A stretch of 64,000 bases of DNA, from the sequence record MN850601.1. The stretch is one strand, 5' to 3'. This document shows positions 15,999-18,083 of the stretch, one piece after another. A program made the translations under genes and the position numbers. How positions within the stretch are numbered: position 1 is the first letter of the stretch; each line of letters opens with the position of its first letter. The notes beneath the pieces are model-generated. The model worked only from the letters and a program-made list of their open reading frames with translations, did not search any database and was not told where the DNA came from. Origin of the DNA: Escherichia phage inny.

Positions 15999-18083
15999 GT
16001 GGCAAGGAAACCTGTCAAACAATCTTTTGAAAATGTAGATATTGAAGTTAAAGCCCAACCTGGCAAACAAACACTAGCTATGGATCTTATGCCTGAAGTA
16101 ATGATTTATGGTGGTGCGGCAGGTTGTGTTTCAGCAGAAACAGAATACCTAACAAGAGACGGTTGGAAACAAATAAGTGAATATGATGGTGAGGATATTT
16201 ATCAATACAATCCAAGAAATAAACGTCTTGAATTAGTTACACCATCTTTTGTAGAATACGATGCTAAAGATAATCTGTATTGTATCACAAACGGAGTAGG
16301 TATCTTCCAAGAATTAAGTATGGAACATCGCTTTGTTTTCTACAAGAAGAAAAAATCCAAAAAACATTTTGAAATTCTTGTTGGGGATCTTATTGCACTA
16401 CAGCAAGCAGGACACCCATTACGAGGATATATTGAAAACCCTTTTGGTAAACGTGTTCCGTTTAACATTCAAGGTAAACCTAGCACATACCTAAAAATTC
16501 ATGAGGTAATGACAAGTGATGATAAGAAATATTGCTTTGAAACTCCAAGCAGTTATGTCGTGTTTAGACGTGGCGATCACATCTTCGTTACTGGGAATAG
16601 CGGCAAAAGCCGTCTGCTACTTCTAAAGGCACTTAAATACGCATATAAAGATCCCCTGTTTGGTGGTATTCTTTTCCGTAAAAATACAACAGCTTTACGT
16701 AAATCTGGTGGTTTGTTTACTGAAGCTAAAAAACTTTATCTACCATTAAAGCCTCACGTAAGAGAACAGGCTATGGAGATGGAGTTCAGAGCCACAAAAG
16801 GTGGTACACTTAAATTTGACCATCTTGAAAATGATAACGTAACTGCTGAAACTAACCATCAAGGTACACAGTATTCGATGGTGGGGTTTGACGAACTTAC
16901 ACATTTTACACAATATGAAATGCTATATCTGTTAGGGCGTATGCGTTCTGAATCAGAAACGTCTTTTATGCTGTGTACTTGTAACCCTGATGCGGATAGT
17001 TGGGTGTTAAAGTGGGTACTTCCTTATTTGGATGAAGCTGGTTATCCACGAGAAGATATGTGTGGCAAACAGCTATACTTTCTTATTGTGCAAGATGAAC
17101 CAGTATTTGCTGAAACAGCAGAAGAGTTGAAAGAAAAGTATCCTGAAAACTGTTTTATGCAAAACCCAAACACAGGTGAAACAGTGGTTATTGAACCACA
17201 AACATTTGTGTTCATTGGTGGTACTATCTTTGATAACCCTGAACTAATAAGACTTAACCCTAAATACTTAGCTTCTTTGAAGGCTCAAACCGCCGTTAAG
17301 AGGGCGCAGCTTTTAGATGGTTGTTGGTTTGCTCGTGCACAAGAAGAGAGTTTCTTTAACAGAGAATGGTTACACGTTATCAAGTTTAAAGATTTACCAA
17401 ACAATCTTAAATATATGCGAGCGTGGGATAAAGCAGTATCTGTTCCAACAGAATCTTATCGTTATCCTGACTACACAACATCTGTTAAAATGGCTAAAGA
17501 CTCTGATGGAAATTATTACATTTTTGGTGATTATGATTATGATGCTCACGATGAAGGTAGTAAAATTTTTGGTAGATTCAGAAGACTACCAGGTGATCGA
17601 GATAATTTAATTCTAAACCAATGTAAGATTGATGGAGATGAAGTTACAGTTGTATTGCCAAAAGATCCTTCTGGTGCTGGTTTGATTGAATATACAGAAT
17701 CAGCTAAAAAACTAATTGCTGAAGGATTTGTTGTTAAACCAGATGCTATGCCTGGTAACAAGAAAAAATTACAACGCTTTATGCCATTTAGTAGTGCTTG
17801 TCAAAATGGTTTTGTTTATATTGTAGAAGAATCTTTCCCTAACAAAGAAACTCTTGATCATTTCTATAAAGAGATGGAGTCATTTAATGGAGAAAGATCT
17901 ACAGCAACGTTAAAAGATGATATTCCAGATGCTGCTGCATCTTGCTTTAATACTTTGTCAAAAGAACAGATGTTTAAAGCAGTAGCAATACCTTCTGCAA
18001 CAAATGCATTAACAGGCTACGGTAAGATGGGTGGAAGATCAAGAAACTCTTTATCTTCTCCATATAGTATCAGAGGAAGATAA
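15999..18083 (+). CDS. terL: terminase large subunit, interrupted by a mini-intein
   Basis: 694 aa from GTG at 15999 (AGGAGG SD); removing residues 43..200 joins YGGAAG to SGKSRLLLL, restoring a Walker A GxxGSGKS; gene position upstream of portal. Confidence 0.8.
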   Translation: MARKPVKQSFENVDIEVKAQPGKQTLAMDLMPEVMIYGGAAGCVSAETEYLTRDGWKQISEYDGEDIYQYNPRNKRLELVTPSFVEYDAKDNLYCITNGVGIFQELSMEHRFVFYKKKKSKKHFEILVGDLIALQQAGHPLRGYIENPFGKRVPFNIQGKPSTYLKIHEVMTSDDKKYCFETPSSYVVFRRGDHIFVTGNSGKSRLLLLKALKYAYKDPLFGGILFRKNTTALRKSGGLFTEAKKLYLPLKPHVREQAMEMEFRATKGGTLKFDHLENDNVTAETNHQGTQYSMVGFDELTHFTQYEMLYLLGRMRSESETSFMLCTCNPDADSWVLKWVLPYLDEAGYPREDMCGKQLYFLIVQDEPVFAETAEELKEKYPENCFMQNPNTGETVVIEPQTFVFIGGTIFDNPELIRLNPKYLASLKAQTAVKRAQLLDGCWFARAQEESFFNREWLHVIKFKDLPNNLKYMRAWDKAVSVPTESYRYPDYTTSVKMAKDSDGNYYIFGDYDYDAHDEGSKIFGRFRRLPGDRDNLILNQCKIDGDEVTVVLPKDPSGAGLIEYTESAKKLIAEGFVVKPDAMPGNKKKLQRFMPFSSACQNGFVYIVEESFPNKETLDHFYKEMESFNGERSTATLKDDIPDAAASCFNTLSKEQMFKAVAIPSATNALTGYGKMGGRSRNSLSSPYSIRGR
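16125..16598 (+). mobile_element. mini-intein (158 codons) inserted in the terL P-loop
   Basis: starts with Cys (CVSAETEYLTRDGWKQISEY, intein block A-like) and ends ...HIFVTGN followed by Ser +1; no homing-endonuclease-sized insert. Confidence 0.7.

Follow-up and report, generated by a model that had tools for sequence, protein, structure and literature searches.

A putative mini-intein in the Walker A loop of the large terminase of phi92-like Escherichia phages

How can the large terminase of a phage work when the loop with which it should bind ATP is broken by 158 additional residues? This question is raised by the terL gene in a 64,000-nucleotide stretch of DNA from Escherichia phage inny (sequence record MN850601.1; the whole stretch is called the window below), a phi92-like coliphage of the genus Justusliebigvirus, subfamily Stephanstirmvirinae. 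Comparison with orthologues, profile searches and structure modelling led us to conclude that the insert is a real and probably active mini-intein; on the aligned sequences and the model, it is highly probable that the element undergoes splicing and that no functional terminase is made otherwise.

The insert was pointed out in an earlier reading of the window made from its letters alone (here the original prediction), which described terL as an open reading frame (ORF) of 694 codons and took residues 43 to 200 of its product as an intein that starts with Cys, ends with Thr-Gly-Asn and is followed by Ser. These limits are exact to the base (Table 1): residue 43 is Cys (TGT, 16125-16127), residues 198-200 are Thr-Gly-Asn (ACT GGG AAT, 16590-16598) and residue 201 is Ser (AGC, 16599-16601). 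Excision of residues 43-200 yields ...MIYGGAAG/SGKSRLLLLKALKYA (the slash marks the junction), just as intein-free orthologues read without a break. In-frame removal restores GGAAG/SGKS, and the canonical Walker A loop G-A-A-G-S-G-K-S is therefore recreated, as had been claimed. The Pfam match of Terminase_6N to the precursor begins at residue 201.

A homologue search with the conceptually spliced TerL of 536 residues as query gave matches with a sharp dimorphism in length. The closest relatives (69-91% identity) have 690-700 residues, and the next clade, P0024-P0026 (about 60-63% identity), has 514-517 residues and reads IYGGAAGSGKSRLILLKALKYA unbroken; more distant relatives mostly have about 500-530 residues, with scattered members of 656-672 and 821-849. 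The alignment with intein-free orthologues that the original prediction called for was run, and the unbroken GGAAGSGKS was found in P0024-P0026 and about 80 others. In 35 homologues the sequence is interrupted exactly where it is in the window, between G-x-x-G and SGKS; all of these inserts start with Cys, end with [TS]-G-N and are followed by Ser, and their lengths are 146, 158-159, 246 or 304-328 residues; from these alignments, sharing of position and ends to this degree is far beyond chance. The empty site is also found in the DNA of a 153-kb metagenomic phage contig (L008) in which TerL, portal and protease genes follow one another as in the window: its TAC GGT GGT GCT GCT GGT / TCA GGT AAG TCT corresponds to TAT GGT GGT GCG GCA GGT / 474 bp / AGC GGC AAA AGC. 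The inserts of 304-328 residues are endonuclease-bearing alleles with the predicted fold of an intein plus a LAGLIDADG endonuclease; their best structural matches are TliVMA, PI-SceI and PI-PfuI, and the match to the inserted domain is I-DmoI. As modelled, these long alleles show how the TerL site was first invaded.

The AlphaFold2 model of the window insert, computed from an alignment of 33 inserts, is a HINT domain of high confidence (mean predicted local distance difference test score, pLDDT, 93.4; predicted template modelling score, pTM, 0.85). Its top Foldseek match (template modelling score 0.72-0.74) is the AceL NrdHF intein (6ZGQ), a phage-derived, naturally split intein of 146 residues that performs fast class 3 splicing through Cys124 (PMC7891396), followed at lower rank by BIL domains, Hedgehog, and the Prp8, DnaB, RecA, gp41-1 and other inteins. 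Among the PDB sequences, the family profile retrieved the same entry (6ZGQ, E=1.3e-11), followed by Pyrococcus PolII inteins (1.5e-3) and, weakly, by RecA, DnaB and BIL entries. The full set of motifs is present and conserved: Cys1, Thr6-Glu7, Gly13-Trp14, Ser65-x-x-His68, Lys-Tyr-Cys137 and Thr156-Gly157-Asn158/Ser. The insert thus combines what is expected of an intein, namely a restored host motif, a HINT fold, S65-x-x-H68 and N158/S201, and the three independent lines of predicted structure, sequence profile and motifs identify it as one.

Less sensitive searches returned little. A single-sequence phmmer search of the PDB sequences gave no intein match, and its WW-domain and other weak matches (E>=0.047) were rejected; they rest on a GW..G..Y.YN stretch that lies in block A and the first hairpin. 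When only the C-terminal 48 residues were made into a profile, no intein was retrieved from the PDB sequences; the 6ZGQ crystal construct carries C124A and N146A, so both invariant anchors are removed from it. A word-indexed protein search with the insert found nothing beyond fragments of the same gene, and the same search with the alignment gained mostly N-terminal TerL fragments of about 290 residues.

All 158 residues are accounted for by the HINT fold, within the size range of mini-inteins (about 130-200 residues), which bears out the earlier statement that no homing endonuclease is present. A hidden endonuclease gene was rejected because the longest ORF in another frame or on the other strand within the insert has 53 residues, and a group I intron or other RNA element was rejected because no Rfam match was found in terL. 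With neither an ORF longer than 53 residues nor an RNA-family match, the element acts at the protein level and has no endonuclease. A six-frame scan with a hidden Markov model found no other copy of the intein in the window.

Is the element maintained by the phages that carry it? Among phage records with an extein at least 80% identical, the intein is present in 132 of 132 (55 at >=95% identity, 77 at 80-90%), and the counts equal those for the extein. The carriers are viable lytic isolates. An intact P-loop of TerL is generally required for packaging, and the intein must keep splicing because its host gene is essential. When the window gene was compared with those of ESCO5 (Phapecoctavirus), Citrobacter phage Tr1 and Klebsiella phage 05F01, nonsynonymous differences per site in the intein (pN) were 0.08-0.20 and synonymous ones (pS) 0.65-0.90; the ratio of the corresponding rates (dN/dS), where dS could be estimated, was 0.05-0.09, the same as in the exteins (0.04-0.15). 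Purifying selection on the intein is as strong as on the terminase itself. Recent horizontal acquisition was rejected, since the GC content of the insert is unremarkable (35.0%, and 36.9% in the rest of terL) and divergence of the intein tracks that of the extein. Together these data are the mark of a mini-intein that is old, immobilised and passed on by vertical descent, and that is now fixed in terL of phi92/phAPEC8-like phages (Stephanstirmvirinae).

A second kind of element occurs in the same gene elsewhere. The terL of Klebsiella phage FKP3 (PP895363.1, 2725-4143; Justusliebigvirus) contains, in addition to the intein, a group I intron (RF00028, 87 bits, E 2e-22), positioned after about codon 288 and with an HNH endonuclease ORF inside; this terL is annotated as two 'terminase' coding sequences because the intron splits it. 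Many intein-containing N-terminal TerL fragments of 285-308 residues in metagenomes probably reflect the same intron split. The window terL has no intron.

The insert belongs to a much wider clade. An exhaustive profile search over 1.84 billion representative proteins found 12,119 representatives at E<=1e-3 and 3,416 at E<=1e-10; clustered at 50% identity, the clade comprises at least 12,000 clusters. Among the sampled hosts are PhoH, Toprim/DnaB-type primase-helicases, RecD-like helicases, RtcB, family A DNA polymerase (PolA) and TerL. In these proteins Pfam detects the host domains and not the intein, and matches of TIGR01445 to other clade members are marginal (0.01, 0.004 and 3e-6). Residue counts were made on 187 full-length domains taken from the 150 best-scoring proteins. 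Cys1 is present in 183 of 183 aligned domains, three others having Lys, Pro or Ala; His B:10 and Asn G:7 are invariant (187/187 each), and Cys F:4 (184/187), Ser or Thr at B:7 (177/187) and Thr or Ser at G:5 (172/187) are nearly so. Arg B:11 is found in 95 of 187, and B:12 is Val, Met, Ile, Phe or Leu, with Trp in only two of the 187. The residue at +1 is Ser, Cys or Thr. Most domains (175/187) are longer than 260 residues, so that minis are the exception, and 77 of 187 sit at G/xGK[ST] in a P-loop. The Gly in place of the usual penultimate His, which the original prediction had remarked on, is indeed there (Gly157), and it is no peculiarity of this copy, as Gly occupies G:6 in 180 of 187 domains. 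Some metagenomic proteins (P0135, with 2602 residues, P0176, P0220 and P0136) carry at least three inteins of this C...C...TGN clade, which in some of them lie back to back; P0135 also holds canonical inteins, and only those are recognised by Pfam.

Several observations weigh against a simple intein reading. The curated profiles Intein_splicing (PF14890), Hint (PF01079), Hint_2 (PF13403), TIGR01445 and TIGR01443 gave no match to the insert at E<=1; the profile check proposed with the original prediction was therefore silent for the Pfam and NCBIfam models and succeeded only through the family profile, and because that profile does find solved inteins, we take the missed matches as a limit of the curated models. 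The insert lacks the usual penultimate His and the Asp at F:4. BASEL curators, who searched for inteins, recorded none for EmilieFrey (Bas61; supplementary S5 Table, PMC8594841), in which terL has the same length and the same insert and encodes a 99.4% identical protein. The same source lists two inteins and one intron for PaulScherrer (Bas60), whose 2085-bp terL is the same as that of EmilieFrey; because Bas60 and Bas61 share terL, yet Bas61 has a count of zero, the TerL intein was not counted there and the inteins of PaulScherrer lie elsewhere. Finally, the active-site residues do not agree on a single route: Cys1 favours class 1, Cys137 and Thr156 favour class 3, and Trp B:12 is missing.

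In the mechanism that we propose, terL would be translated as a 79-kDa precursor in which the ATP-binding P-loop is broken between Gly42 and Ser201. Folding of the 158-residue HINT domain would bring the two splice junctions together, and the domain would excise itself, joining Gly42 to Ser201 and leaving a 61-kDa terminase with an intact GGAAGSGKS and a free intein of 18.5 kDa; the predicted mature TerL has 536 residues (60.8 kDa, from a 79.2-kDa precursor) and the junction peptide QTLAMDLMPEVMIYGGAAGSGK, with a predicted mass of 2240.6 Da. ATP binding and DNA packaging would be possible for the spliced protein only. At the upstream junction His68, aided by Ser65, may strain the Gly42-Cys43 bond, and the N-extein would shift to a thiol, which could be that of Cys1, that of Cys137 at F:4, or that of Cys1 and then of Cys137 in relay. 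It would then be passed to the hydroxyl of Ser+1, Asn158 would cyclise without a penultimate His, probably aided by Arg69 as in AceL NrdHF, and an O-to-N shift would make the peptide bond. Arg69 (B:11) is, by this analogy, a candidate substitute for the missing His: in AceL NrdHF, Arg69 aids Asn cyclisation, and G145H abolishes splicing by a clash with Arg69 (PMC7891396). The penultimate His is poorly conserved in phage inteins, where Gly, Lys or Ser may replace it, and G316H slows splicing of Bethlehem gp51 (PMC5050341). Because AceL NrdHF is active with Gly145 and inactive as G145H, and the gp51 mutant is slower, a penultimate Gly is compatible with fast splicing. In our view both cysteines take part, because both are almost invariant in the clade.

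Which of these routes is used? The class 1 hallmark of Cys, Ser or Thr at position 1 is present as Cys43 (Cys1), and the usual assisting residues of class 1, Asp F:4 and His G:6, which are typical rather than obligatory, are replaced by Cys137 and Gly157. Cys137 at F:4 and Thr156 at G:5 are class 3 hallmarks that stand alongside Cys1 and were overlooked in the original prediction; the F:4 assignment is based on alignment, on the spacing of 21 residues from Cys to Asn (as in MP-Be DnaB) and on Pro at Cys+4 (as in AceL NrdHF). Two other class 3 features are absent, since B:12 is Phe70 instead of Trp and the presence of Cys1 departs from the definition by which class 3 inteins have no nucleophile at position 1 (PMC5050341, PMC7891396, PMC3196547). 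By published sequence criteria, then, the intein is neither class 3 (Cys1, B:12 other than Trp) nor typical class 1 (Cys F:4, Gly G:6, Thr G:5).

A pure class 1 route, in which Cys1 forms a thioester by an N-S acyl shift, Ser+1 attacks it directly and Cys137 fills the position of Asp F:4 as a non-nucleophile, is a doubtful possibility. It agrees with the presence of Cys1 in every aligned domain, in contrast to the drift at position 1 in classical class 3 inteins, and with the absence of the Trp B:12 of the Trp-Cys-Thr (WCT) triplet. However, Cys F:4 is conserved as strictly as Cys1, and a non-catalytic role would hardly account for this; Thr G:5 is conserved only in class 3 according to Hoffmann et al. 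(2021, PMC7891396); and Cys F:4 is the obligate nucleophile in the nearest characterised relative, AceL NrdHF. Of the three clade members that have lost Cys1 (with Lys, Pro and Ala), two clearly keep Cys F:4, and the third is ambiguous in the alignment. These members, together with the Ala1 of AceL NrdHF, suggest by sequence and analogy that Cys F:4 already takes part in acyl transfer.

The class 3 route can likewise be put forward only tentatively. Here Cys137 would attack the Gly42-Cys43 bond directly to give a block-F branched thioester, and Cys1 would be dispensable or accessory. The layout of AceL NrdHF is matched position for position (S65, H68, R69, a hydrophobic residue at 70, Cys F:4 with its Pro, and T-G-N/S), and Ser+1 is typical of class 3 inteins. 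Mixed-motif inteins, with Ser1 or Cys1 plus WCT, reportedly splice by the class 3 route (Tori & Perler 2011). On the other side, hardly any member of the clade has lost Cys1, class 3 as operationally defined in the literature demands that position 1 hold no nucleophile, and Trp B:12 is absent.

A relay of two cysteines, in which the N-extein of the window intein and its clade passes from Cys1 to Cys F:4 and then to Ser+1, would stand functionally midway between classes 1 and 3, and we regard it as rather unlikely. If true, it would explain both invariant cysteines, the fixed Thr G:5 and Gly G:6, and how inteins of class 3 type, AceL NrdHF among them, can arise repeatedly when Cys1 is simply lost.

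In a variant of the relay, the cysteine pair may act as a redox switch that gates maturation of the terminase. A disulfide between Cys1 and Cys137 would hold TerL inactive under oxidising conditions and so tie packaging to the state of the host, a proposal that is compatible with either class 1 or class 3 chemistry and that we consider improbable. The two invariant cysteines should be close neighbours in the active site, the F:4 thiol of AceL NrdHF has been modelled at a distance of 3.0 A from the carbonyl where the bond at the N-terminal junction is cut (PMC7891396), and a class 3 DnaB intein is reported as an oxidative-stress sensor (PMC6195587), but the cytoplasm of E. coli is reducing and catalysis alone explains the conservation of both cysteines. 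The third cysteine of the intein, Cys53 (16281-16283, in LYCITNG), is outside the conserved pair because most close relatives have Arg there (LYRITNG).

That the HINT domain does not splice at all, being retained by the mature terminase in an exapted role or performing cleavage only as in BIL domains, would agree with the silent curated profiles, with BIL and Hedgehog domains among the structural matches and with an annotators' label of 'endonuclease domain', but is very improbable, because the insert interrupts the Walker A loop of an ATPase that is essential, whereas BIL domains mainly cleave rather than ligate and occur in variable, non-essential proteins, because the terminal Asn and Ser+1, needed only for excision and ligation, are invariant, because cleavage without ligation would destroy TerL, and because orthologues with an otherwise identical P-loop have no insertion.

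Splicing of a mini-intein thus remains the reading that we prefer, and the features on which it is based are collected in Table 1. The protein is identical to QHR69761.1 (Escherichia phage inny), and the DNA of the terL region is 99.0-99.6% identical to that of phi92, AV123, alia, EmilieFrey and others. Translation starts at a GTG four bases after AGGAGG, the same start as used by GenBank relatives.

Table 1. Positions in the window of terL, the predicted intein, its conserved blocks and neighbouring genes.
Feature	Position	Strand	Remarks
tRNA genes (15)	11446..14196	+	About 1.8 kb upstream of terL; two each of tRNA-Met, tRNA-Leu and tRNA-Ser
First of two overlapping ORFs upstream of terL	15324..15755		Pair annotated as i-spanin, o-spanin in EmilieFrey
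Second of two overlapping ORFs upstream of terL	15661..15990		See preceding row
Shine-Dalgarno-like AGGAGGAG, upstream of terL GTG	15989..15996	+	Read from sequence
terL precursor ORF	15999..18083	+	694 codons plus stop, 79.2 kDa; matches to Terminase_6N and Terminase_6C
N-extein, TerL residues 1-42, ending ...MIYGGAAG	15999..16124	+	Aligns with N-termini of intein-free orthologues
First half of Walker A P-loop, GGAAG, residues 38-42	16110..16124	+	Compare unbroken GGAAGSGKS in P0024-P0049 and others
Mini-intein (predicted), 158 residues (TerL residues 43-200)	16125..16598	+	18.5 kDa; HINT fold; no homing endonuclease
Block A (N1) CVSAETEYLTRDGW	16125..16166	+	Cys1, candidate first nucleophile; T6, E7, G13 and W14 conserved in the family
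Block B (N3) core S65-M-E-H68-R69-F70	16317..16334	+	Ser B:7, invariant His B:10, Arg B:11, Phe B:12
Block F (C2) KYCFETPSSYVVF	16527..16565	+	Cys137 at F:4 (TGC, 16533-16535); Pro141 four residues on
Block G (C1) HIFVTGN/S	16578..16601	+	Thr156 G:5, Gly157 G:6, Asn158 G:7; Ser+1 is TerL Ser201
C-extein, TerL residues 201-694	16599..18080	+	Starts SGKSRLLLL; second half of Walker A at 16599-16610

The gene is flanked by the spanin genes on one side and the portal gene on the other, and because the spanin ORFs directly precede terL, the lysis cassette abuts the packaging genes; a cluster of tRNA genes lies further upstream. Four records of 146 kb labelled 'Campylobacter phage A150, A145, C3, A110a' (MG065639, MG065645, MG065656 and MG065689) encode a TerL about 100% identical to that of phi92-like coliphages, and Phapecoctavirus-type records also carry Acinetobacter and Pseudomonas phage labels. 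Host mislabelling or contamination is the likely source of these Campylobacter, Acinetobacter and Pseudomonas names.

None of the GenBank records inspected annotates an intein in this terL. The protein cluster goes under about 20 source names, with 'terminase' or 'hypothetical' only, and the products in OR525700.1 (KMB37) and LC483177.1 (05F01) are called 'large terminase with endonuclease' and 'potential large terminase with N-terminal endonuclease domain', the region so named being the endonuclease-free mini-intein; these labels are probably misread remote matches to intein entries such as 'Endonuclease PI-MtuI' or 'PI-SceI'. A 2024 paper on a phi92-like phage stated that no inteins had been reported in coliphages, and within an incomplete coverage of the literature we found no paper that links an intein with TerL of Stephanstirmvirinae. 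What is new is an intein left unmarked in a well-studied phage group; the P-loop intein as a kind of element is known.

The finding matters for several reasons. More than 130 sequenced phi92/phAPEC8-like phages carry the element unmarked, and many of them, including phi92 and BASEL phages, are candidates for phage therapy. TerL is a standard marker of phylogeny and packaging type, and an unrecognised insert of 158 residues distorts alignments and expectations of size. Because Pfam is blind to this large clade, intein censuses based on it undercount phage inteins. The invariant pair of Cys1 and Cys F:4 offers a natural test case for the evolution of class 3 from class 1, and the intein, which is compact and would splice in cis, is a plausible tool for protein engineering, since it has to function at 37 C in the cytoplasm of E. 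coli with a Gly(-1)/Ser(+1) junction.

Inteins in the P-loops of phage terminases are well documented (PMC5050341, PMC2807308); the original prediction had called the P-loop a known hotspot of intein insertion. The mycobacteriophage TerL1-a and TerL1-b inteins (Kelley et al. 2016, PMC5050341) also lie inside the Walker A loop of the large terminase, but their hosts belong to Terminase_1 instead of Terminase_6, most of them have LAGLIDADG endonucleases, and their site is GK/T or one residue away, whereas the window intein is at GAAG/SGKS, three residues upstream of the 'classic' GK/T. The Terminase_6 inteins in the same survey were found at the C-motif only (PMC5050341).

Compared with the long alleles at its own site (P0060, P0061, P0063, P0068, P0077, P0089, P0109 and P0116), the window intein shares the G/SGKS insertion point, C1, S-x-x-H, KYC, TGN/S and the terminase family, and differs in that they have 304-328 residues with a LAGLIDADG-fold domain and are about 26-35% identical to it. 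The long alleles presumably represent the mobile form and the window copy the immobilised one.

With classical class 3 (WCT) inteins such as MP-Be DnaB and Msm and Mch DnaB-1 (PMC2807308, PMC7664689), the window intein has in common Cys F:4, Thr G:5, Ser or Thr at +1, P-loop ATPase hosts and an association with phages; the spacing from Cys F:4 to Asn in MP-Be DnaB (C320 to N341) is that of the window intein. An N-terminal nucleophile together with Cys F:4 is shared with the mixed-motif inteins, and this is the category of the window intein by sequence criteria alone.

The closest known system is AceL NrdHF, in which the corresponding residues are Ala1, Ser65, His68, Arg69, Met70, Cys124 (F:4), Pro128 and Thr144-Gly145-Asn146/Ser (PMC7891396). 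Over residues 6-72 the two align with 26% identity and two single-residue gaps, and the window intein repeats the arrangement with Ser65, His68, Arg69, a hydrophobic residue at 70 (Phe), Cys137, Pro141 and Thr156-Gly157-Asn158/Ser. Like the window intein, this proven class 3 intein lacks Trp at B:12, having Met instead (PMC7891396). The differences are that AceL NrdHF has Ala1 and is obligately class 3, whereas the window intein has Cys1, and that the former is encoded by two genes with a GIY-YIG endonuclease between them in the ribonucleotide reductase NrdHF, whereas the latter is contiguous, and would splice in cis, in TerL.

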